Shown here: one piece after another, positions 52,176 to 64,000 of the stretch
Numbering within the stretch: the first letter of the stretch is position 1
Layout: every line of letters begins with the position of its first letter
Assembly (NCBI GenBank): GCA_043809585.1
Contig: JBDROZ010000088.1
Coordinates: 1 to 64,000 of the forward strand
Direction of reading: 5' to 3'
Origin: Candidatus Eiseniibacteriota bacterium
GTDB lineage: Bacteria > Orphanbacterota > Orphanbacteria > Orphanbacterales > Orphanbacteraceae
DNA: 64,000 nt
Made by a program: the position numbers and the translations under genes
Notes under the pieces: generated by a model
Told to the model about the DNA's origin: nothing
The model's input: only the letters and a program-made list of their open reading frames with translations
Database searches by the model: none

Positions 52176-55100
52176 GTGAATGCCAGGATGTCCGCGAAGG
52201 AGACCGCCGTCGTCGGTCCGGGAACGACAGTGCTCGTGCTCACCCTCTTCGTACTCTCCGGCGCCGCGGGGCTCGTCTACGAAATCATCTGGACCCGGAT
52301 GCTCACCCTCGTCTTCGGAAACACGGTCTACGCCGCGAGCACGGTGATCGCCTCCTTCATGGGGGGCCTCGCCATCGGCAGCTATATCTTCGGGAGGCTC
52401 GCCGATCGGCGGCGCGACACGCTCCGCATCTACGGAATGCTCGAGTTCGGCGTCGGTATCTTCGCCCTCTTCGTGCCGACGATCTTCACGGGTCTGAACG
52501 GCGTCTACGGCCACCTCTTCCGCTCTTTCGGCGAGCAGACGGCCCCCTTCTTCATCGCCCGATTCGTACTCTCCTTCACGATCCTCCTCGCCCCGACCAT
52601 TCTGATGGGCGCGACCCTCCCCGTGCTCACGCGGTTCTTCGTGGTCCGGCGGGCCCGCCTCGGGCGCCAGGTGGCGAACCTGTACGCGCTGAACACGCTC
52701 GGGGCGACGGCCGGCTGCTTCCTGGCGGGGTTCTTCATGATCGAGCGCCTCGGCGTTTCCAGGAGCAACTACGCCGCCGCCGCCGTCAGCCTGATCGTGG
52801 CGACCCTCATCGTGATCACCGCCCATCGGCTCGGACCGGGCGCCGCGGGGACGGTCCCGGAGAAGACGCAGGCCAAAGAGAAGAAGAAGGATTCCGAGGG
52901 GCGTTACTCCGACGGCGTCCGCCGGCTCATCCTGATCGGCATCGCCTTCGTCGGGTTCTCCTCCCTCGGCTACGAAGTGCTCTGGACGCGTGTCATCATC
53001 TACGTGACGAGCGCGAGCATCGAGGCCTTCACGGTGGTGCTCACCACCTACCTCGCCGGGATCGCCCTCGGCAGCCTTCTCGTCGCGCGGTGGGTCGACC
53101 GCTGGAAGAGACCCCTCGCCGTGTTCGGTGCCATCGAGATCGCCGTCGGCCTCGCCGCGATCGCCTCGATCCCTCTCCTCGCCGACCTGTACCGGGTCTC
53201 CGCCTTCGTCTCCCAGCTGCATATCCCCGGATTCTGGGGATGGACGGCGGTGCGGTTCCTCTTCACCGCCATCGTGATCGCCCTGCCCACCCTTCTCATG
53301 GGGGCCGCCTTTCCGGTCGCGACGCACGCCTTCATCCGCACCATGGGCGGCGTGGGCCGTGGCGTCGGGAGCCTCTACGCCATGAACACCGTGGGGGCCG
53401 TGGCCGGCTCCCTCGCCGCGGGATTTCTCATCCTCCCGGCCCTCGGGGCGCAGAACGGCCTGATGGTCCTCGCCCTTCTCAACATGATCGTCGGCGTGAT
53501 CCTCTGGTCCTCCGAGAAGGGGCGCCGGATCGCGGGCATGGCGGGGGGGGCGGCGGTCGCCGCGGCGGGCTTCCTGATCGGCCTCTTCTTCATTCCGCCT
53601 CACGCCTTCCACCGCCTCTTCAACCAATCCCGGGCGGCTTCGAAGATGATCTACTGCAGCGAGGACGCGACGGCCACGGTCACGGTCCACCAGTTCCCGC
53701 CGGGGTACAACTTCGAGGAGGACCTCCGGGTCATCTGCACGAACGGCGTGGACGTGGCGGGCACGGACTACATGCTCCGCACCACCCAGCTCGTGCAGGG
53801 GCACCTGCCCCTGCTGGTCCAGAGGCCGGGAGCCCGGGCGATGCAGGTCGGTTTCGGGAGCGGCGAGACGGCGCGGGTCATCCTCCTGGAAGGGGCGGAG
53901 CACCTCGACGTGATCGAGATCTGCGACGGGCTCGTGGCGGCGGCCCCCCTCTTCGCCGACATCAACCGGCTCGCCTACCAGGGCCCGAAGGCGCGGGTCA
54001 TCATCATGGACGCGAAGAACTACGCGCGGCTCACCGGCGAGAAGTACGACCTCATCATGAACGACTCGATCCACCCGCGGGTGAGCGGCAACGCCAGCCT
54101 CTACACGGTCGACTACTTCGCCGACTGCCGGGCGAGCCTGGCGCCGGGGGGCTACATGTCGAGCTGGTTCCCCGTTTACGGGATGCGGCCGGAGGAACTG
54201 AAGATGATCCTCCGCTCCTTCCAAACCGTCTTCCCCCACGCCACCCTCTGGATGGCCCACAACACGGTCAACCGCCACGCCCTCCTCCTCGCGCCCCTCG
54301 AGGACGGGCCGGTCCGGATCGACTACGGGGACTTCCACCGCCGATTCACGCGCCCCGAGATCCTCGAGGATCTCGCGCCGATCGACATGGACGATCCCGT
54401 CTTCTTCATCAGCAGCCTCGTGATGGACGAAGACGCCCTCCGCGAGTACAGCCAGGGGGCGGATCTGAACACCGACGACCATCCCCGGCTCGAATACCGG
54501 GTGCCGAAGCACCTCGAGAACGACGAACTCGCGTGGGCGAACATCCTCGAGTCGCTCCTCCCCTACCGCTCGGACGTACGCACCCTCCTGACCGGCCTCC
54601 CCGAGGACCCGGAGGAGCGGCGGGAGCTCGTGGATCTCCTCGGGCGCTACTACGAGGGGAACGGGTACGTGCTCCGGGGGATGGTGAAGGGGCTCCGCGG
54701 GGACAAGGATGCGCTCGGCGAGTTCGACAAGGCCGAGGAGGTTTGCCCCGAGCATCAGGCGGTCCGGATCGCCCGGGAGCGCCGGGAAGAGCAGCTGTCG
54801 GTCCGGATCGTGGAGGCGATCTCCCGGCCCGGCGACGCGGACGCCGTCGCGCGGCTCAGCGACGCCTACTGGCGGGCCGGCCGCATCGAGGAGGCGGCGA
54901 GGGAGATCGAGCGGGCCTCACGGATGGCGCCCGACAACCCGGCGTACGCGAGGCGGCTCGGTGAACTCCGGACGAGCCTCGGCAACCACCGGGGGGCCCT
55001 CGAAGCGTACAACCGCGCCCTCGAGCTCGCGCCGGAGAACCCGGTGATTCTGGTCGGCATGGCCGTTTCTTACGAGGCCGTCGGCCAGTGGGAGGACGCG

Positions 55101-55598
55101 GCCCGCTGTTACCGGGAGGCCACCTCCCGGGGGGGCGACCGGCGGAGCGATCTCCAGATCAGCCTGGCCCTCGCCGAGATGCGCCTCGGCCGGGTCGACA
55201 AGGCGGCGGAGGCGTACGGCCGGGCCCTCGAGCTCGCGCCCCACTCCATCGTCGCCCTGAACCATCTCGCGCTCCTCGAGTCGGAGCGGGGGAACCGGGA
55301 CGAGGCGATAGCGCTCCTCCGGCGGGCGATGCAGGCCAACCCGCGACATCCCGACGCCTGGAACTCCCTCGCCTGGATGTACGCCGAGGAGGGGACGAAT
55401 CTGGACGAGGCGCTCCGGCTCGCGGAGCGGGCGGTCGAGCTGGCGCCCACCGCGAACGCCTACGACACCCTCGCCTGGGTGCGCTTCAAGAAGGGTGAGC
55501 GGGCCGAGGCGCGCGCCGCCGCGCGCCGCGCGCTCGAGCTCGATCCCGGGAAGGAGTCCTCCCGGGATCTCCTCGGGCGGATCGAAGAAGGCCGCTAG
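52176..55598 (+). CDS. Fused MFS-like membrane domain/spermidine synthase-like methyltransferase with C-terminal TPRs
   Basis: LSGAAGLVYE, LYALNTLG, VGFGSGET, MDAKNY, YDLIMND, NTDDHPRLEY motifs; TPR repeats. Confidence 0.9.
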   Translation: MNARMSAKETAVVGPGTTVLVLTLFVLSGAAGLVYEIIWTRMLTLVFGNTVYAASTVIASFMGGLAIGSYIFGRLADRRRDTLRIYGMLEFGVGIFALFVPTIFTGLNGVYGHLFRSFGEQTAPFFIARFVLSFTILLAPTILMGATLPVLTRFFVVRRARLGRQVANLYALNTLGATAGCFLAGFFMIERLGVSRSNYAAAAVSLIVATLIVITAHRLGPGAAGTVPEKTQAKEKKKDSEGRYSDGVRRLILIGIAFVGFSSLGYEVLWTRVIIYVTSASIEAFTVVLTTYLAGIALGSLLVARWVDRWKRPLAVFGAIEIAVGLAAIASIPLLADLYRVSAFVSQLHIPGFWGWTAVRFLFTAIVIALPTLLMGAAFPVATHAFIRTMGGVGRGVGSLYAMNTVGAVAGSLAAGFLILPALGAQNGLMVLALLNMIVGVILWSSEKGRRIAGMAGGAAVAAAGFLIGLFFIPPHAFHRLFNQSRAASKMIYCSEDATATVTVHQFPPGYNFEEDLRVICTNGVDVAGTDYMLRTTQLVQGHLPLLVQRPGARAMQVGFGSGETARVILLEGAEHLDVIEICDGLVAAAPLFADINRLAYQGPKARVIIMDAKNYARLTGEKYDLIMNDSIHPRVSGNASLYTVDYFADCRASLAPGGYMSSWFPVYGMRPEELKMILRSFQTVFPHATLWMAHNTVNRHALLLAPLEDGPVRIDYGDFHRRFTRPEILEDLAPIDMDDPVFFISSLVMDEDALREYSQGADLNTDDHPRLEYRVPKHLENDELAWANILESLLPYRSDVRTLLTGLPEDPEERRELVDLLGRYYEGNGYVLRGMVKGLRGDKDALGEFDKAEEVCPEHQAVRIARERREEQLSVRIVEAISRPGDADAVARLSDAYWRAGRIEEAAREIERASRMAPDNPAYARRLGELRTSLGNHRGALEAYNRALELAPENPVILVGMAVSYEAVGQWEDAARCYREATSRGGDRRSDLQISLALAEMRLGRVDKAAEAYGRALELAPHSIVALNHLALLESERGNRDEAIALLRRAMQANPRHPDAWNSLAWMYAEEGTNLDEALRLAERAVELAPTANAYDTLAWVRFKKGERAEARAAARRALELDPGKESSRDLLGRIEEGR

Positions 55599-55628
55599 AA
55601 GACAAAAAAAGGGAGACGGTCTGCCGCG

Positions 55629-57050
55629 ATGAAAACGGACCGCGTCCTCCTCCTGGCCTTCTTGCTCGCCCTCGCGGTACGCATCGCCGTGATCGACCGG
55701 CCGATCTGGTACGACGAATCCTGCACTTACTGGGAGGCCCGGCCGGAAGAGAAGATCCCGGCCCTCACGAGCATTACCCCGATCCCGTCGTACATCGTGA
55801 AGTCCCTCGCCGGGCGTTTCGACGAGCCGTGGATGCTCCGGCTCCCCTTCCTCGCCGTCGGTCTCGCGTCCATCCTCGTCTTCGCCCGGGCGGTCCGGGA
55901 GTGGCACGGAAGGGAAGCGGCGGGATGGACGGCGATTCTCCTCGCCCTCTCCCCCTTCCACGTCTGGTACACCACCGAGGCGCGCATGTACGGGGCCCTC
56001 CTCCTCGCGGCGGCGATGATGTACCTCTATCTCGGCCGGGCGATCCGGGGGACCGGCCGCGGGGCCTGGATCGGCTACGGCGCGGGGGCGCTGATCGGCG
56101 TCTATCATCATCCGTTCACGTGGCTCCTCGTCGGCACCCACGGACTCTATCTGCTGATCGAGAGGCGCGGGATGTTCCGTCCCCTCGTCGTCACCGCGAT
56201 CGTCGTCGCGGCGGCGACGGCGCCGGCCACATGGTACGTCCTCGTGGTTCACCGCCTCTCGTCGGACCGGATCGGGTGGATCGAGAGCCGGCCGGCGATG
56301 GCCGTCGCGGGGACATTCTACAGTTTCGTAATGGGGCTCCTCTTCCTCCCGAAGCTCTGGTGGTGGGCCCTCACGGGCTTCGCCGCCCTTCTCTTCGGCG
56401 CCCTGACGGTCCGGGGCGCGATCGCGAAACGCCGCGAAGCACTGCCCGTTTCCATGGCGCTCGTCGTCCCCCTCTTCCTCGTGATCGCCGGTTCGTTCGT
56501 CCGCGACATCTACAGCGATCAGACGACGCGCTACCTCGCCTTCTCGGAGCCCTTCCTGATCCTCCTCGCCGCCCTCGGACTCGGGACCATCCGGTCTCGG
56601 GGAATGAGGGCCGCCGCGGGCGCGGGCGTGGTTCTCGTTCTTCTCCTCGCCCTCTCGCCCATCCACTTTCTCTGGGACGAAGTCGGCACCGGACGCTTCG
56701 AAGAGGCCGCCGAGGAGATCCGAACCCGGATCCTCCCGGGGGACGTCATCATCAGCCCGAGCCTCGTCGGCCTGCCCGTCGCCTACCAGCTTCGGGGCGG
56801 ACTCCACCGGGAGATGCGCATCGGACACAGCCGGGAGGTCATGGCGGAGTCCCACGATTCCCCCCGGATCTGGCTGCTCGGCATGAACCACCGCTCCACC
56901 CGGCAGTTCCTCTGGTCGCCGGAAAACATCGACCTTCCCGCGTCGCCCGCGCCCGAGGGGTACCGGCTCGTGGATCACCAAGTCTTTCCGGGACGGAAGC
57001 CGATCTCGCTCACGCTGTACGAGAGGGCGGGGGGAAGTGGTCGAAGGTAA
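55629..57050 (+). CDS. GT-C fold glycosyltransferase (GT39/ArnT/PMT_2-like)
   Basis: IWYDE, LRLP, LSPFHVWYTTEARMY, RY motifs; multiple TM helices. Confidence 0.85.
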   Translation: MKTDRVLLLAFLLALAVRIAVIDRPIWYDESCTYWEARPEEKIPALTSITPIPSYIVKSLAGRFDEPWMLRLPFLAVGLASILVFARAVREWHGREAAGWTAILLALSPFHVWYTTEARMYGALLLAAAMMYLYLGRAIRGTGRGAWIGYGAGALIGVYHHPFTWLLVGTHGLYLLIERRGMFRPLVVTAIVVAAATAPATWYVLVVHRLSSDRIGWIESRPAMAVAGTFYSFVMGLLFLPKLWWWALTGFAALLFGALTVRGAIAKRREALPVSMALVVPLFLVIAGSFVRDIYSDQTTRYLAFSEPFLILLAALGLGTIRSRGMRAAAGAGVVLVLLLALSPIHFLWDEVGTGRFEEAAEEIRTRILPGDVIISPSLVGLPVAYQLRGGLHREMRIGHSREVMAESHDSPRIWLLGMNHRSTRQFLWSPENIDLPASPAPEGYRLVDHQVFPGRKPISLTLYERAGGSGRR

Positions 57051-57091: not shown

Positions 57092-57130
57092 TTGACATTA
57101 ATCGATAAATGGAGCGTAATATCTATTTAT
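57092..57130 (+). promoter_or_regulatory. Sigma70 promoter with overlapping inverted-repeat operator
   Basis: TTGACA (57092-57097)-N17-CGTAAT; inverted repeat ATAAATGGA-N8-TCTATTTAT (57105-57130) covers the -10 and the start codon. Confidence 0.65.
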
Positions 57131-57572
57131 GATCTCCCGAAGTGCTTCCTACGCGATCCGGGCCATGGCCTTCATCGCTTCGGCCGAGCCCGAAACCCGT
57201 CTCCTCTCCCGGGATATCGCCGCGGTTCTGGAGCTCCCGCCCCAGTTCCTTTCGAAAATCTTGCGGACCCTCGTCGGGAGAGGGCTGCTGCAGAGTCGAC
57301 CCGGCAAGTCCGGAGGGTTCCGACTCGCCCGACCGGCGGACACCATCGTGTTGATCGAGATCGTCGATCCCTTCGACCGGCTGATCGATCGAAGGCGCTG
57401 TCTCCTCGGACTGCCGCGGTGCTCCGAGGAGTCCGGTTGCCCCCTTCACGGCGAGTGGAGACCCTTCGTCGACTCATTCATCGAGGTACTCACCCGATGG
57501 AAGCTCACCGACATGGCGACCGCGACGGCAACTACCGGCGGGCCGGTCTGGCGGGGAGGGGCCACGACGTGA
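57129..57572 (+). CDS. Rrf2-family transcriptional regulator with Fe-S-type Cys motif
   Basis: YAIRAM, FLSKIL, SRPGKSGGFRLAR, CLLGLPRCSEESGCPLH. Confidence 0.92.
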   Translation: MISRSASYAIRAMAFIASAEPETRLLSRDIAAVLELPPQFLSKILRTLVGRGLLQSRPGKSGGFRLARPADTIVLIEIVDPFDRLIDRRRCLLGLPRCSEESGCPLHGEWRPFVDSFIEVLTRWKLTDMATATATTGGPVWRGGATT

Positions 57573-59476
57573 TCTTCCGGCCCGACGAAGTGGTCGTGCC
57601 CGACCGGTCGTACTGGAAGGACCAGATCCGGTGCCAGGCCGCCTGTCCCGTGCGCACCGACGCCCGCGGCTACGTGCGGGCCATCGCCGAAGGGGACGAC
57701 GAGCTCGCCTACCTCATCGCCCGGGGTCCGAACCCCCTCGCGTCGATCTGCGGCCGCATTTGCGGCGCCCCCTGTGAGGCGGCGTGCCGCCGGGGCGAGT
57801 TGGACCGGCCCATCGCGATCCGCGCGCTGAAGCGATTCGTGTGCGAGCGCTGCGGACCCGAGGCGCCCCGGACGGACGGAAGAGCCCTGATCGATTTCCT
57901 GAAGGAGGCGGCCCGCCGATACGGGCCCTTGCCCTGCGAAGACCGGGAAGAGCTGCTCCCCCTCCTGCAGTCCCTCCTCGAAGGGGAGATCGAGCCGGTG
58001 TCCGGCAAGAGCGTCGGCATCATCGGCGCGGGACCGGCGGGGCTCGCCGCCGGCCACGATCTGGCCCTCCTCGGATTCGAGGTGACCCTCTACGAAGCCG
58101 AGCCGGTGCTCGCGGGAATGCTCGCCGTCGGGGTGCCCGAGTACCGGCTCCCCCGCGACCTGATCCGCGCCGAAGTCGACGTCATTCTCGCGCTCGGCGT
58201 GCGCCCCGTGACCGGTTGCGAAGTGGGAAAGGACGTTTCCCTCCCGGAACTGCGGAAACGGCACGACGCCGTCATCATCGCCGTGGGGGCGAAGCGGTCC
58301 CGGACCCTCGATATTCCGGGGGCGGACGCCCGGGGGGTTCTCGGAGGCGTCGAGTTTCTCCGGGACATCGCCCTCGGGCACCCCCCGAAAATGGGAAGCC
58401 GCGTCGTCGTGATCGGGGGAGGGAACGTGGCCTACGACGTGGGCCGCACCGTGCTCCGCCAGATCTCGTACGATGCCGCGCGCACCGCCCTCCGGGAAGA
58501 GGGAGTCGCCGCCGTCCACCTCTGCTCCCTCGAATCCCTGGAGGAGATGCCCGCCGACGACCTGGAGATCGTCGAGGGAGACGAAGAGGGTATCGTGCGG
58601 CACAACAGCCTGGGCCCCCTGGAAATCCGGAAGGACGGCGAAGGCGGCGTCCGGGGCGTGGTCTTCCGTAAGTGCCTCCGGGTGTTCGACGAATCCGGGC
58701 GTTTCGCGCCCCTCTACGACGATTCCTCCCTCGAAGAGATCCCCTGCGACAGCGTGCTCCTGTCGATCGGCCAGGGTGTGGACCTCCGGTTCGTGGACGG
58801 CGCGCGGGATGGTCTCGAAGTGACGGGGCGGGGGTTCCTCGCCTGCGATCCGGAGACGGGGGAGACCAACGCCGGAGACGTCTTCGTCGCCGGCGATCTC
58901 GCCTACGGACCGAAGCTCCTCATCCACGCGGTCGCCTCGGGAAAGCGGGTCGCCCGGTCCGTCTACGAACGGATCACGGGGAAGCGCCTCGGCGCGGAGG
59001 GCGTGGAGCTGCACCTCGCCATCCCCGACTACCGGCGGGAACCGGACTACGAGAACCGGCGGCGCGCGGCGATTCCCGTTTCCCCCGTCGCGGAGCGGCT
59101 CCGCTCCCATGACGCGCCCGTCGAGAGAGGATACGGCCCGGAGCAGGCCCGCCGGGAAGCGTCCCGGTGCCTCGACTGCGGGGTCAACACGGTCTTCGAC
59201 GGCGACAAGTGCGTCCTCTGCGGGGGATGTGTCGACGTCTGCCCCGAACTCTGCCTCCGCATCGTCTCGGCCGATCGCCTCCCGGGAGCCGAGGGGGTCC
59301 TTCCCGGAGTCCTCGATGCGCAGCTGACGGGGACCCGTGCCGAAGAGGCATCGGCCATCATCAAGGACGAGACGATCTGCATCCGGTGCGGCCTGTGCGC
59401 GGAGCGCTGCCCCACCGGCGCGATCACGATGGAGCGATTCCAGTTCAAGGAGATCCCGAAATGCCGAGTCGATTAG
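57569..59476 (+). CDS. Cytoplasmic FAD/NAD(P)-dependent oxidoreductase with N- and C-terminal Fe-S clusters (GltD/NfnB-like)
   Basis: GTG 57569 overlaps the Rrf2 stop; CQAACP, CGRICGAPCEAAC, GAGPAG, GGGNVA, CVLCGGCVDVCP, CIRCGLCAERCP motifs; no signal peptide. Confidence 0.9.
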   Translation: MIFRPDEVVVPDRSYWKDQIRCQAACPVRTDARGYVRAIAEGDDELAYLIARGPNPLASICGRICGAPCEAACRRGELDRPIAIRALKRFVCERCGPEAPRTDGRALIDFLKEAARRYGPLPCEDREELLPLLQSLLEGEIEPVSGKSVGIIGAGPAGLAAGHDLALLGFEVTLYEAEPVLAGMLAVGVPEYRLPRDLIRAEVDVILALGVRPVTGCEVGKDVSLPELRKRHDAVIIAVGAKRSRTLDIPGADARGVLGGVEFLRDIALGHPPKMGSRVVVIGGGNVAYDVGRTVLRQISYDAARTALREEGVAAVHLCSLESLEEMPADDLEIVEGDEEGIVRHNSLGPLEIRKDGEGGVRGVVFRKCLRVFDESGRFAPLYDDSSLEEIPCDSVLLSIGQGVDLRFVDGARDGLEVTGRGFLACDPETGETNAGDVFVAGDLAYGPKLLIHAVASGKRVARSVYERITGKRLGAEGVELHLAIPDYRREPDYENRRRAAIPVSPVAERLRSHDAPVERGYGPEQARREASRCLDCGVNTVFDGDKCVLCGGCVDVCPELCLRIVSADRLPGAEGVLPGVLDAQLTGTRAEEASAIIKDETICIRCGLCAERCPTGAITMERFQFKEIPKCRVD

Positions 59477-59928
59477 AGCCCGAGCCTCTGCCGCGACGTG
59501 ACTTCCTCGGCCTCGCCGGTCTCTGGGCCGCCGGCGCGGCGATCGTCGGGTCCATCGCGGGCATGGCCCGGCTGCCCGTACCGCAGGTCCTGCCCGAGGC
59601 GGATCGCCGGTTTCGCATCGGCAAGCCGGGCGAGTTCCCGCCCGGCACGTCCCGGATCATCCCGGGGAGAAACGTCCGCGTGGTCTCGGAGGAGCGGGGT
59701 ATCGCCGCGGTTTCGCTGGTCTGCACGCACCTCGGCTGCATCGTGTCGGAGACGAGCGATGGCTACTCGTGTCCCTGCCACGGGTCGAAGTTCGGCCGCG
59801 GGGGCGAGGTGATCCAGGGGCCGGCCCCGAGACCTCTCCGGTGGCTCGAGATCAGCCGGGCCGCGGACGGGGCGTTGGTCGTCGACGGGGACCGGGAGGT
59901 CGATCCGTGGACCTTCTACCGGGCCTAG
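59461..59928 (+). CDS. Rieske [2Fe-2S] protein of a Rieske/cytochrome b complex
   Basis: Tat-type RRDFL plus TM helix; CTHLGC, CPCHGSKF, GPAPRPL. Confidence 0.93.
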   Translation: MPSRLEPEPLPRRDFLGLAGLWAAGAAIVGSIAGMARLPVPQVLPEADRRFRIGKPGEFPPGTSRIIPGRNVRVVSEERGIAAVSLVCTHLGCIVSETSDGYSCPCHGSKFGRGGEVIQGPAPRPLRWLEISRAADGALVVDGDREVDPWTFYRA

Positions 59929-59941
59929 AGGGGAGACCGTC

Positions 59942-61489
59942 ATGAGCGATCACGGCCTTTCGTCGTTCGCCGCGAATCTCCGCAAAGTGCCGGAGACGCT
60001 CCGGGCCTCTTTCGTCCGGCACGGGGCGCCGGTTTCCGACCGGAGCCGGTCCCAGGCGGTGTTTGGCAACCTGTTTCTGCACATCCATTCGACGAGGGTT
60101 CACATCCGAACGCTCCGCTTCTCGACGACCATGGCCCTCGGCGTGGCCACCGCCTCGTTCTTTCTGGTGCTCTTGGCGACGGGCGTTCTCCTGATGGTCT
60201 ACTACAAGCCGGCCGTCGACCTCGCCTACGACAGCATCAAGGACATCGAAAACGTGGTGCCCACGGGCCGGTACATCAGGAACATCCATCGGTGGTCGGC
60301 CCATCTCATGGTCGTCACGGTCCTGCTCCATATGTTCCGGGTCTTCTACACGGCGAGCTACAAGTCCCCCCGGGAGTTCAACTGGCTCATGGGCATGGTG
60401 CTGCTCGTTCTGACCCTCGGCCTCTCCTTCACCGGGTATCTCCTGCCGTGGGATCAGCTCGCCTACTGGGCGGTCACCATCGGGTCGAACATCGCCGCCT
60501 CCCCCCGGGAACTGACCGACGTGCTCCGGATCACGGACCACTTCGACCCGGGAGGATTGCAGCGGAGGCTCCTGCTCGGTTCGAATCTCGTCGGTCCCGA
60601 GGCGCTGATCCGCTTCTATCTTCTTCACGTCATGGTTCTTCCCCTCGCCCTTGCGGCCGTCCTCGGCGTCCACTTCTGGCGAATCAGGAAGGACGGAGGC
60701 CTCGGGCGGCCCGGCGGCCCTCCCACGACCGCCGGAAAAGGCGCCGCGCCTCCCGGCTCGGAGAGCGCGCCGCCGGAGAGCGCGCCCCGGAAGACCTACG
60801 GTCTCATGTGTGTCGTTCGGGACCGTACGCCCGCCACGAACCTCGATCCCGCCGACACGGTGCCTTCCTGGCCGTACGTCCTCCGGGCCGAGCTGCTGGT
60901 CTTCATGATCTCCATGCTCGTCTGCGTCGTGCTCGGCCTCGCGGCCGACGCCCCCTTGAAGGAAATGGCGAACCCCTCGGTCCCCGAAAACCCGGCCAAG
61001 GCGCCCTGGTATTTCCTCGGGCTCCAGGAACTGGTTTCCTACTCGGCGTTCGCGGGAGGACTCGTGATCCCGGCCATCACGCTGCTCGGGCTCGCCCTCA
61101 TCCCCTACCTCGACCGGGAACGGGAGGAGGCGGGCGTGTGGTTCAGCGGAAGCGCCGGCCGCCGCGTCGCCGTCGCGAGCCTCCTCTTCGCGGCGATCGG
61201 CGCGGCGCTCGCCGTGGCGATTCCGGTCCGCTTCGGGTGGATCCGGAACTGGTTTCCCGACGCCTCCCAGCTCTGGGTGATTCTCGTCAACCCGGGAACG
61301 CTGCTCACGGCGGCGTACGCGGCCTACTCCCTGATCGTGTTGAAGCGGACCGGCTCCACCAGACTGGGGGCCATCGCGCTCTTTACCTGTTTCGTTGCCG
61401 GTTTCGTGGTCTTGACCTACGTCGGTTCGGAGCTCCGGGGTCCCAACTGGGAATTCTTCTGGAGCAAGTCGGGCTGGCCGGTGCATTGA
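59942..61489 (+). CDS. Cytochrome b (fused b6 + subunit IV type)
   Basis: RNIHRWSAH...LHMFRVF, REFNW, TGYLLPWDQLAYWA, FYLLH...VHFW, NPAKAPWYF motifs. Confidence 0.93.
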   Translation: MSDHGLSSFAANLRKVPETLRASFVRHGAPVSDRSRSQAVFGNLFLHIHSTRVHIRTLRFSTTMALGVATASFFLVLLATGVLLMVYYKPAVDLAYDSIKDIENVVPTGRYIRNIHRWSAHLMVVTVLLHMFRVFYTASYKSPREFNWLMGMVLLVLTLGLSFTGYLLPWDQLAYWAVTIGSNIAASPRELTDVLRITDHFDPGGLQRRLLLGSNLVGPEALIRFYLLHVMVLPLALAAVLGVHFWRIRKDGGLGRPGGPPTTAGKGAAPPGSESAPPESAPRKTYGLMCVVRDRTPATNLDPADTVPSWPYVLRAELLVFMISMLVCVVLGLAADAPLKEMANPSVPENPAKAPWYFLGLQELVSYSAFAGGLVIPAITLLGLALIPYLDREREEAGVWFSGSAGRRVAVASLLFAAIGAALAVAIPVRFGWIRNWFPDASQLWVILVNPGTLLTAAYAAYSLIVLKRTGSTRLGAIALFTCFVAGFVVLTYVGSELRGPNWEFFWSKSGWPVH

Positions 61490-61498
61490 GGTGAATCG

Positions 61499-63037
61499 AT
61501 GAACCACTCCGTCGATCCAGCGGAATCCATGGCCGAGAAGGTGGGAGAAGAGGCGCGCCGAAGAGACCGGTGGGTCAAGATCGGCCTGCTCGCGTTCAGC
61601 GCGGCGACCCTCGCGTTGCTCGTCACGGCCGCGCTCCGGGAAAACGTCTTCACCGAATGGAAGGCGCACCAGAGGCGATATGCCGCCATCCTCCGGGAGA
61701 AGGCCGCCGACCGGGACGGCGAGCTGCTCGCCGAGCGCTTCCGGGTGGAGATGCGGCAGGTCGTCCTTCCCGAACTCGGGACCGTCGACCGATGCGTTTC
61801 CTGCCACACCGGCATGGACGACCCGCGAATGACCGGCGTCCCGGCCCCCTACGCCGCGCACCCCGGAGACTACCTCCGGGAGCACGAGATCGAGAGGTTC
61901 GGCTGCACCATTTGCCACCGCGGCCAAGGAAGGGCGATGGACTTCGAACAGGCGAAGTCGGAGAAGCACCACTGGGACTACCCCCTCCTCCCGACCGTGT
62001 ACGCCCAGTCCTCCTGCGGAGTCTGCCACTCCCCCGAGGAAGTGGCCGTGCGGGGCGGCGACTGGTACGCCGCCGGGGCGGCGCAGTTCGAAGAGAAAGG
62101 CTGCCGCTCGTGCCACAAGCTCGGGGGCCGGGGCGGCAATCTCGGACCGGAGCTGGACAACGAGGGCCTGAAGGTCCGGGGCCAGCTTCCCATGGCCCGC
62201 GTGGAAGGTCCGAAGACTCTTCCCGAGTGGCTCGCCGAGCACTTCCGTGACCCCGGAGGGATCGTGGCGGGGAGCCGAATGCCCTCGCCCGGCCTCAGTC
62301 CCGACGAAAACCGGGCGCTGACGACGTTCATGCTCTCCCTCCAGGACCGGGACCTCCCTTCCTCCTACCTGACACCGGAGCGCCACCTCGAGGTGTACCG
62401 GAATGCCCGCCCGCCCGAGAGAACGGGAGAGGATCTGTACCGGACATTCTGCTCCCACTGCCACGACACGGGACGGTCGGGAAGATTCGACAAGTTCTTC
62501 GGAATCTTCATTCCCGCGATCCGGGGAGAGAGCTACCGGAGCACGGTTTCCCCCGCGTACCTCGCGGCGAACATCCGCGAAGGCCGGCCGGGGAAGATCA
62601 TGCCCGGCTGGAGTCCCGCTTCCGGCGGCCTGTCGGAGGAGGAGATTCGGCGTGTCGCGGTCTACCTGCTCGGGCGGGAAGTCTCCCCGGACGAATGGAA
62701 CGACCCGAAACCGTCCCCGGCGCCGAAGGGGGACGCGGAGCGGGGCCGGAGGCTCTTCGCGAAAAACTGCTCCGGCTGCCACGGCGCGGACGGGGCCGGA
62801 CGGGTGGGTCCGTCGCTGGACACGGCCGTGTTCCGGCGGTACGCCGGCGACCCGTTCCTATTCCGCACCATCGCGGAGGGACGGAGGAACACGGCCATGC
62901 CGGCGTTTCTCGGGCCCGTGGCCGGCGGACTCGGTGAGGGAGACGTGAACGATCTGATCGCATTCCTGAGGACCCTCGGCCGAGGCGCGGTCGCTCTCGC
63001 CGCTCCGGCCGCGGGGGCTCCGGTCTCCGATCCATAG
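61499..63037 (+). CDS. Membrane-anchored hexaheme cytochrome c
   Basis: N-terminal TM helix; six CxxCH motifs: CVSCH, CTICH, CGVCH, CRSCH, CSHCH, CSGCH. Confidence 0.9.
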   Translation: MNHSVDPAESMAEKVGEEARRRDRWVKIGLLAFSAATLALLVTAALRENVFTEWKAHQRRYAAILREKAADRDGELLAERFRVEMRQVVLPELGTVDRCVSCHTGMDDPRMTGVPAPYAAHPGDYLREHEIERFGCTICHRGQGRAMDFEQAKSEKHHWDYPLLPTVYAQSSCGVCHSPEEVAVRGGDWYAAGAAQFEEKGCRSCHKLGGRGGNLGPELDNEGLKVRGQLPMARVEGPKTLPEWLAEHFRDPGGIVAGSRMPSPGLSPDENRALTTFMLSLQDRDLPSSYLTPERHLEVYRNARPPERTGEDLYRTFCSHCHDTGRSGRFDKFFGIFIPAIRGESYRSTVSPAYLAANIREGRPGKIMPGWSPASGGLSEEEIRRVAVYLLGREVSPDEWNDPKPSPAPKGDAERGRRLFAKNCSGCHGADGAGRVGPSLDTAVFRRYAGDPFLFRTIAEGRRNTAMPAFLGPVAGGLGEGDVNDLIAFLRTLGRGAVALAAPAAGAPVSDP

Positions 63038-63053
63038 GCCAGAGAGGAGCGAT

Positions 63054-64000
63054 ATGATGGACGACCGAACCCACGAGCTGGCTCCTCGATCGGAGGACGG
63101 CGGGACCTCCCGCTCGATTCCCGGGCGCGGCATCGGCCGGCGCCGCTTCCTGCAGCTCGGCGCCGGCTTCGCCGCCTGGATGGCCCGCCCGGCGGGGGCC
63201 GCGCTCGAGGAGTTCGATGTCGTCGACGTCGACCCACTCAGGAGCTATCCCTATCGGGGGTGGGAGGATCTCTACCGGGAGCGCGCCGGGTGGGACCGCG
63301 TCGTCCGTTCCACCCACTCGGCGAACTGCACCGGCTCGTGCTCGTGGAAGGTGTACGTGAAGGACGGCATCATGATCCGGGAGGAACAGGCGGCGGATTA
63401 TCCCCGGATCAACGAGGACCTCCCCGACTACAATCCGCGGGGCTGCAACAAGGGCGCATGCTTCGTCGAGTACGTGTACGGCGCACAGCGCCTCAAGTAC
63501 CCGCTCATCCGCGCCGGCGAGCGGGGGAGGGAAAGTGGCGGCGCGTGGGGTGGGACGAAGCCCTCGAGTACGTGGCGGAGAAGCTCCTGGACAATGTCTA
63601 CAACCACGGCCCCGACACCAACACCTTCTTCTCGGTCATCCCGGCCATGTCGCCGGTATCGTTCTGCGCGGGATCGCGCCTCGCCCATTTCATCGGAGGC
63701 GTGTTCTGCTCCTTCTACGACTGGTACTGCGACCTTCCCCCCGGAGAGCCGATCACGTGGGGCGTGCAGACCGAGGCGTGCGAGTGCGCGGACTGGTTCA
63801 ACGCCAAACACATCGTTCTCTGGGGATCCAACATCAACGCCACGCGGATTCCGGACGCCCACTTCGCCTGGGAGGCGCGGTACAACGGGGCGACGGTGGC
63901 CTGCGTCTCGCCCGACTACAACGCCAGCTCGATCCACGCAGACCAGTACGTCCGAATCGAACCGGGGATGGACATCGTCCTGGCCAACGCCGTCTGCCGG
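63054..64000 (+). CDS. Tat-exported type II DMSO-reductase-family molybdoenzyme alpha subunit (periplasmic NarG-like); partial, frameshifted at G5 63523-63527
   Basis: Not in the ORF track. ATG 63054; GRRRFLQ; THSANCTGSCSW...PRGCNKG. After +1 G it reads ERGEGKWRRVGWDEAL...SFYDWYCDLPPGEPITWG...WGSN...TRIPDAHF. Confidence 0.88.
   Translation, partial: MMDDRTHELAPRSEDGGTSRSIPGRGIGRRRFLQLGAGFAAWMARPAGAALEEFDVVDVDPLRSYPYRGWEDLYRERAGWDRVVRSTHSANCTGSCSWKVYVKDGIMIREEQAADYPRINEDLPDYNPRGCNKGACFVEYVYGAQRLKYPLIRAGERGRESGGAWGGTKPSSTWRRSSWTMSTTTAPTPTPSSRSSRPCRRYRSARDRASPISSEACSAPSTTGTATFPPESRSRGACRPRRASARTGSTPNTSFSGDPTSTPRGFRTPTSPGRRGTTGRRWPASRPTTTPARSTQTSTSESNRGWTSSWPTPSA

Follow-up and report, generated by a model that had tools for sequence, protein, structure and literature searches.

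A candidate operon that may link a periplasmic nitrate reductase to an anammox-type NAD(P)-linked Rieske/cytochrome b complex in Candidatus Eiseniibacteriota

Introduction

The closest described relatives of the system reported here come from two sources. In the anammox bacterium Kuenenia stuttgartiensis the gene sets Kuste4569-4574 and Kustd1480-1485 encode NAD(P)-linked complexes made of an NfnB/GltD-like NAD(P) oxidoreductase, a Rieske protein, a b6-like cytochrome b and an anchored hexahaem cytochrome c. In the haloarchaeon Haloferax volcanii (pHV3) the Rieske and cytochrome b genes lie directly before those of a periplasmic nitrate reductase (pNar), namely a NarG exported by the twin-arginine translocation (Tat) pathway, NarH, an EB_dh-like haem protein and a TorD-family chaperone, an arrangement outlined in PMC3509893. 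Here we describe an operon in a metagenome-assembled genome of Candidatus Eiseniibacteriota (GCA_043809585.1) in which the two designs appear to be joined. The stretch analysed, called the window below, comprises the first 64,000 bases of the 92,096-bp contig JBDROZ010000088.1 (C88); positions further downstream keep the same numbering. The operon has eight genes, preceded in this lineage by an Rrf2 gene, and its sequence suggests, as a proposition that we consider evenly balanced, that a NarGH-type nitrate reductase in the periplasm is firmly wired to a Rieske/cytochrome b complex of its own, of the NAD(P)-linked type known from anammox bacteria.

For the anammox complexes, the sections of PMC12954380 drawn on here give Rieske potentials of +303 and +335 mV, the latter for Kustd1480. 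They also describe structural models with a five-helix subunit IV (section 3.3) and AlphaFold3 models in which an extra haem b is held by a histidine in the N-terminal region before helix A of cytochrome b. In the same sections experimental proof of NAD(P)+ reduction by quinol is said to be still outstanding for anammox, and for one of the two Kuenenia complexes the driving acceptor is given as not known.

Both halves of the present operon are known separately, and as far as can be seen the joined operon is unpublished. The preliminary description of this DNA, made from the sequence alone, had allowed that the same architecture might already be on record; a full-text literature search, with supplements outside it, found no description of it. 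Titles retrieved with the Kuenenia locus tags concerned anammox only. The work of ten Brink et al. 2013 (BBA), reported to survey multiple Rieske/cytochrome b clusters, may bear on novelty. Four other leads were set aside as different things on the strength of the relevant parts of the papers: the 'NXR' of Zixibacteria RBG-1 (PMC3903129), the Caldithrix Nap with Rieske/cytochrome b (PMC5317091), the Methanoperedens Nar with a separate Rieske/cytochrome b cluster (PMC4683180) and a lead from Margulisbacteria (PMC6349859).

Results

Extent and layout of the operon

The genome comprises 4.24 Mb in 123 contigs and is 97.5% complete. Gene families were assigned by Pfam and NCBIfam profile matches. 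From position 57129 onward the window carries six plus-strand genes, for an Rrf2-family regulator, a flavoprotein, a Rieske protein, a fused cytochrome b, a hexahaem cytochrome c and the alpha subunit of a molybdoenzyme, with neighbouring genes overlapping by 4-76 nt or spaced by 9-16 nt. The same six tightly coupled genes had been named in the preliminary description, and the profile matches confirmed each of them. The operon runs past the end of the window: alpha ends at 65995 and is followed, with 4-10-nt overlaps, by the genes for beta, gamma and delta, which were found on the same contig at the place where they had been predicted. The features are as follows.

57092-57130, + strand: promoter-like stretch reaching up to the Rrf2 start codon (TTGACA at 57092-57097, 19 nt, TAATAT at 57117-57122, AT-rich palindromes), read by eye and a lead only
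57129-57572, + strand: Rrf2-family regulator, 147 aa (Pfam Rrf2, 90.1 bits)
57497 (ATG, 659 aa) or 57569 (GTG, 635 aa) to 59476, + strand: NfnB/GltD-like iron-sulfur flavoprotein (Pyr_redox_2 91.7 bits, Fer4_20 58.6 bits, C-terminal Fer4)
59461-59928, + strand: Rieske protein, 155 aa (Rieske profile, 43.3 bits)
59942-61489, + strand: fused cytochrome b6-like and subunit-IV-like protein, 515 aa (Cytochrome_B, 126.1 bits)
61499-63037, + strand: membrane-anchored hexahaem cytochrome c, 512 aa (six CxxCH)
63054-65995, + strand (in the window up to 64000): alpha, a Tat-exported type II molybdoenzyme (TIGR03479, two frame pieces)
63523-63527, + strand: run of five G in the assembly sequence, where the alpha frame shifts by one base
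65992-67296, + strand: beta, 434 aa (TIGR03478, 499.7 bits against a cut-off of 480.7)
67287-68039, + strand: gamma, EB_dh-type haem b protein, 250 aa (TIGR03477 63.9 bits, EB_dh 21.3 bits)
68036-68692, + strand: delta, NarJ/TorD-type chaperone (Nitrate_red_del, 57.6 bits)

The alternative GTG start of the flavoprotein at 57569 forms a GTGA overlap with the Rrf2 stop codon. A consensus promoter scan with spacers of 16-18 nt returned 0 promoters, and terminator-like sites were 10 against 7.3 expected, so that internal stops in the operon are not indicated.

Conservation and distribution

Synteny of the flavoprotein and Rieske/cytochrome b (bc) module with the molybdoenzyme, which the preliminary description had named as the decisive test, held up in a scan of one genome per species, which gave 76 loci whose alpha was 60-78% identical to the present one. 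The order flavoprotein, Rieske, cytochrome b, hexahaem was found before alpha on the same strand in 54 of the 55 loci with at least 5.7 kb of sequence before alpha, and beta, gamma and delta followed in 60 of the 61 loci with room downstream. The exception upstream was a locus from an Acidobacteriaceae genome (L071, 9881-11575), where alpha has lost its 5' part (564-aa frame), unrelated genes lie before it, and only beta, gamma and delta still accompany it. Its sequence marks this locus as the remains of a decayed operon, and it does not count as an intact alpha that lacks the module.

Most carriers are Acidobacteriota of soil and peat: according to the record titles, 39 of the 54 loci belong to Acidobacteriota, and ten other phylum names occur once each, giving at least 11 names; some of the single labels may be binning errors. 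In the host's own small phylum alpha was found in only one of 10 genomes, that of the host, so the operon is patchy and was probably transferred horizontally. The pairwise identities of six components correlated at 0.79-0.90 across 25 loci. Since shared descent gives the same correlation, this shows only that the genes travel together. The designation of the operon as Rrf2-controlled does not hold as a family trait: of 52 relatives only 9 had an Rrf2 gene in the 1.2 kb before the flavoprotein. The regulator itself scored well above the Pfam threshold of 30, carries three cluster-type cysteines arranged as C-x6-C-x5-C, and reached none of the NCBIfam equivalogs NsrR, IscR and RirA.

The flavoprotein and the Rieske/cytochrome b module

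The core of the flavoprotein is an FAD- and NAD(P)-binding unit of the NfnB/GltD type. Its best matches among solved structures were 9bov_A (288 bits), 8oh5_C (240 bits) and NfnA 9n5u (237 bits), and the NfnB-type chains 4ylf_B and 5jca_L were matched as well. No transmembrane helix was predicted in it. Eight conserved cysteines lie in the N-terminal Fer4_20 domain and 12 in the C-terminal domain, and 21 conserved cysteines were kept in at least 49 of 50 sequences. Its gene overlaps that of the Rieske protein by 16 nt.

The Rieske protein has an RR motif, one membrane helix and the boxes CTHLGC and CPCHGSKF, which are invariant in the relatives. Its top solved matches were both from Kuenenia, 9rk4_A (Kuste4569, 78.6 bits) and 9rk3_A (Kustd1480, 60.1 bits). 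From GSKF in the second box the preliminary description had deduced a lower-potential centre. Kustd1480 contradicts this deduction, since its Ser/Phe pair is the same and its potential, according to the redox data of PMC12954380, is +335 mV.

The cytochrome b has about nine membrane helices (4 + 5), and thus shares with the anammox complexes the five-helix subunit-IV part described in section 3.3 of PMC12954380. The closest resemblance of its N-terminal half is to cytochrome b6 (142.5 bits). Across 61 sequences the haem ligands His116, His130, His229 and His244 are conserved with the b6-type spacing of 13 and 14 residues, and the quinol oxidation (Qo) motif AKAPWYFL is found in 61/61; its APWY lacks the acidic residue of the PEWY type. 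Before helix A stand three further histidines, at 47, 49 and 54 (each in 60/61), in the region where the anammox models of PMC12954380 put the extra haem b. Together with the C-terminal His515 (59/61) they could be ligands of additional haems.

The hexahaem cytochrome has one N-terminal helix and a C-terminal part like CcoP. All six CxxCH motifs are invariant (48/48), as are His121, His129 and His248 and Met261, Met368 and Met467. The six CxxCH, APWY and CPCHGSKF were each found, and the relatives conserve them.

A second, more canonical cytochrome b is encoded elsewhere in the host genome (contig C52, 32111-32650; PF00033, 185 bits), and the bc module of the operon is therefore an extra, dedicated one.

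Identity of the molybdoenzyme

Alpha scored 179.5 and 877.1 bits in its two frame pieces with TIGR03479 (cut-off 984.75), and 125.9 and 512.7 bits with the narG equivalog TIGR01580, whose cut-off of 1084.15 was not reached. Its twin-arginine signal reads RRRFLQ, the FS0 iron-sulfur site HSANCTGSCSW has the pattern His-x3-Cys-x3-Cys, and the molybdenum-ligand Asp lies in SFYDWYCDLPPG. Among solved structures the perchlorate reductase PcrAB (PDB 4ydd, 5e7o) was closest, with a full-length match of 750-754 bits (754 for PcrA), followed by Escherichia coli NarG (431 bits), the alpha subunit of ethylbenzene dehydrogenase, EbdA (283 bits), and Kuenenia NxrA (160 bits). In a common alignment alpha was 48.8% identical to H. 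volcanii pNarG, 40.6% to Thermus NarG, 39.4% to E. coli NarG, 35.1% to Ideonella ClrA and 29.5% to an alpha of the nitrite oxidoreductase (NXR) type from locus L092, described below.

All six of the E. coli NarG residues His49, Asn52, Tyr220, Asp222, His546 and Glu581, which belong to the active site and FS0 (PDB 1q16), are retained in alpha and likewise in 4 aligned relatives. The pNarG of H. volcanii differs here, having Asp at the position of His546 in the alignment and according to the relevant part of PMC8301774. Aligned to PcrA, alpha keeps the gate residues Phe164 and Tyr165 and the molybdenum ligand Asp170, whereas the gate residue Trp461 is replaced by Glu, the state of NarG according to the same part of PMC8301774. 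Both SFYDWYCDLPPG and the gate Glu were present in 51/51 family members, and HSANCTGSCSW in 50/51. Chlorite dismutase (PF06778) was not found in the 97.5%-complete genome. The assignment of alpha as a perchlorate reductase PcrA was therefore rejected.

The E. coli enzyme NarGHI differs in facing the cytoplasm without Tat export, in being about 270 residues longer and in oxidising quinol directly through NarI. No NarI-like anchor gene occurs in the operon, in which the third subunit is of the EB_dh type. This gamma subunit stayed below the cut-offs of both TIGR03477 (169.85 bits) and EB_dh; Met146, Met162 and Lys240 are invariant in it (57/57). In the relatives, too, delta directly follows gamma.

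Because of the NarG residues, the gate Glu, the lack of chlorite dismutase and the twin-arginine signal we read alpha, from its sequence, as a pNar in all respects tested, although by NCBIfam score it is not a NarG equivalog. The preliminary description had spoken of oxyanion reduction in general; the reduction stands and the substrate is narrowed to nitrate. A tree of alpha had also been proposed there. In a tree of 19 rows with 6 references, among which PcrA, SerA, DdhA, EbdA and Nitrobacter NxrA were not represented, the bc-linked alphas grouped together (support 86), but the deep forks were not settled, and the pairwise identities and residues were therefore relied on.

At its C-terminus beta is extended by about 100 residues rich in Cys, a feature present in some relatives (430-438 aa) and missing in Terriglobia (about 335 aa).

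Sister operons and free-standing modules

Searching metagenomes with the cytochrome b alignment gave 80 loci. In four of these (L084, L087, L089 and L092) the same module, with cytochrome b 57-62% and flavoprotein 54-56% identical, precedes a different alpha of the NxrA lineage. The alpha of L092 matched Kuenenia NxrA (7b04_B) over its full length with 872.6 bits, and the NXR-type alphas were only 25-30% identical to the present one. L084 (447-12723) has the same nine-gene order, namely Rrf2, flavoprotein, Rieske, cytochrome b, multihaem cytochrome c, NXR-type alpha, beta, EB_dh-type gamma and a NarJ-like protein. In the cytochrome b tree the pNar-linked and NXR-linked modules fell into one clade with a support of 100 in the Shimodaira-Hasegawa-like approximate likelihood ratio test (SH-aLRT).

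The unit of flavoprotein, Rieske, cytochrome b and multihaem cytochrome was also found without a molybdoenzyme, with unrelated genes downstream, at L113 (5493-11616) and L119 (5663-10649).

Neighbouring genes

A cytochrome b561-like gene (68864-69865; Ni_hydr_CYTB, 55.1 bits) begins 171 nt past delta. It was excluded from the operon, as it was present in no relative searched. Upstream, outside the operon, lie genes (52176-57050) for a membrane protein of 1140 aa whose tail is rich in TPR repeats and for a glycosyltransferase of the PMT_2 type (35 bits). Further along C88, at 87086-88702, lies a second molybdopterin enzyme gene with one in-frame TGA, which could be a selenocysteine formate-dehydrogenase-type gene.

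Discussion

The gene content of the operon, compared with H. volcanii and Kuenenia, bears out the idea that it merges the haloarchaeal and anammox designs. The haloarchaeal cluster (L079) shares the Rieske/cytochrome b genes before the pNar genes but has neither flavoprotein nor multihaem cytochrome c. The anammox complexes share those components and differ in several respects: in the present operon cytochrome b and subunit IV form one polypeptide, the gene for the flavoprotein stands first, the place of a hydroxylamine oxidoreductase (HAO)-like octahaem protein as terminal enzyme is taken by a molybdenum nitrate reductase with its beta, gamma and delta, and the carriers belong to non-anammox phyla. 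The parts, their order, their conservation and the predicted membrane sides can be read from the sequence.

The enzyme is very probably a nitrate reductase fed by the bc module of the operon. Menaquinol is the proposed donor because menD is present in the host genome (399 bits); the futalosine route (PF02621) was not found there. It would be oxidised at the Qo site, and the high-potential electron would pass through the Rieske protein, the hexahaem cytochrome c, the haem b of gamma and the iron-sulfur clusters of beta to the molybdenum centre of alpha, where nitrate would be reduced to nitrite outside the cytoplasm. The second electron would cross the membrane through the two b haems, possibly by way of a further haem held by His47, His49 and His54, and would then reach the cytoplasmic flavoprotein at its Cys-rich C-terminal domain, to reduce NAD(P)+ at the FAD. 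Such electron bifurcation, with NAD(P)+ as an acceptor, is plausible. For anammox the proposal is that the flavoprotein works in the direction of NAD(P)H; the same direction here is a credible suggestion to which we give slightly less than even confidence. It is based on the homology to the anammox complexes, on their high Rieske potentials (PMC12954380, in its data on redox potentials) and on the two NuoD loci of the host genome, which would make a non-pumping entry of NAD(P)H wasteful. The discussion section of PMC12954380 makes the same argument for anammox.

Several observations weigh against this proposal. Alpha is frameshifted in the present assembly. The cysteine to which b6f and the anammox models attach haem cN has no counterpart: across the 19 cytochrome b sequences compared, no Cys before helix A was invariant. 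This also sets the module apart from the anammox complexes and leaves the electron step from haem bH to the first iron-sulfur cluster hypothetical. Besides complex I the host has an oxidase, so that a shortage of NAD(P)H is not evident. NirK and NirS were not found in the host genome and an NrfA-like match reached only 25.9 bits, so that no clear onward route for the nitrite is evident. Finally, the energetics are tight. With the potentials given in PMC12954380 and the textbook nitrate couple, about 505 mV would be gained, and about 250 mV plus the membrane potential would be spent, leaving little margin.

The flavoprotein could also be an electron input, with NAD(P)H reducing the b haems or an N-side quinone; the whole would then be an NAD(P)H:nitrate oxidoreductase whose Q cycle is of the ordinary kind. 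NfnB/GltD-type proteins normally accept hydride from NADPH, and electron flow in this direction would be downhill all the way; it is considered for anammox, too, in the discussion section of PMC12954380. Against this stand the loss of about 250 mV in a genome with two NuoD-type loci, an argument used likewise in that discussion, and the pairing of the module with very high-potential acceptors, in the pNar as well as in the NXR versions, which an input role leaves unexplained. An input role therefore appears unlikely to us, though it deserves to be taken seriously.

A plain quinol:nitrate chain with a normal Q cycle, in which pNar is supplied by the bc module and the hexahaem and the flavoprotein has a side role as a ferredoxin link, redox valve or sensor, would find a precedent in the haloarchaea, which according to the relevant part of PMC3509893 run Rieske/cytochrome b and pNar without a flavoprotein. 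Cytochrome b relatives without a flavoprotein gene exist as well: L101 has a bc-multihaem unit lacking it, and 13 rows of the cytochrome b tree are likewise labelled. The persistence of the flavoprotein in 54 of 55 relatives, its conserved cysteines and the overlap of its gene with the Rieske gene speak against this, and we regard a plain chain as distinctly unlikely.

If the frameshift in alpha were real, the operon would be dead in this host. The shift, not recognised in the preliminary description, separates 63054-63527 from 63527-65995 at the five G, and the assembly's own gene call for alpha is a truncated 845-aa protein (P0001). In every relative the two pieces are joined in a single frame, reading GERGEGKW. 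The stretch is present as independently assembled contigs in two runs of one biofilm-metagenome sample, no RNA data set was among its listed holders, and an independent 256-nt contig of this sample (depth 3.3) spans 63523-63527 with an extra, sixth G that restores GERGEGKW. This indicated that the one-base shift is likely an assembly error. A different one-base deletion was seen in the same sample, where a base at 63737 is missing from one contig of run X1 while another contig agrees with the window; single-base indels at a depth of about 3 are therefore noise in the assemblies of this sample. The other genes of the operon are all open. A dead operon is thus improbable.

Reversal of the operon, so that a nitrite oxidoreductase would supply the chain with electrons, had been offered as an option in the preliminary description and found no support in the present analysis: the enzymes of the family are reversible and a sister operon has an NXR-type alpha, yet the present alpha sits with reductases (PcrA and haloarchaeal pNarG, about 46-49% identity) and a bc complex driven backwards by nitrite (+430 mV) would gain nothing from the NAD(P) module, so that we hold reversal to be very improbable. 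Equally little is to be expected of another oxyanion (perchlorate, chlorate or selenate) as the substrate, for which PcrA as the closest solved structure could be cited, in view of the gate Glu in 51/51, the six NarG residues, the missing chlorite dismutase and the low identity of ClrA (35%), whose motifs are different.

Returning to bifurcation towards NAD(P)+, the operon could, to judge from its components, let cells make NAD(P)H during nitrate respiration. Tentatively, and as a possibility that we do not favour over its contrary, the flavoprotein, Rieske/cytochrome b and multihaem unit might be a portable 'turbocharger' for reductases of strong periplasmic oxidants, in which each menaquinol is split, one electron going to nitrate and one uphill to NAD(P)+. 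Its partner would be pNar here and an NXR-type enzyme in the sister operons. If this is true and complex I re-oxidises the NAD(P)H, the charge yield per nitrate could, by our own arithmetic, rise from 2 to about 6, which is near the thermodynamic limit, and bifurcation from quinol to NAD(P)H would be widespread among bacteria of soil and sediment and not an anammox oddity. As the module is genetically fixed to a defined and easily assayed acceptor enzyme in the genomes of dozens of species, the question left open for anammox becomes testable. Many 'nitrate reductase / nitrite oxidoreductase' labels in uncultured bacteria stand for a distinct respiratory design, which may differ in energy yield and in which the molybdoenzyme has been swapped between two lineages.

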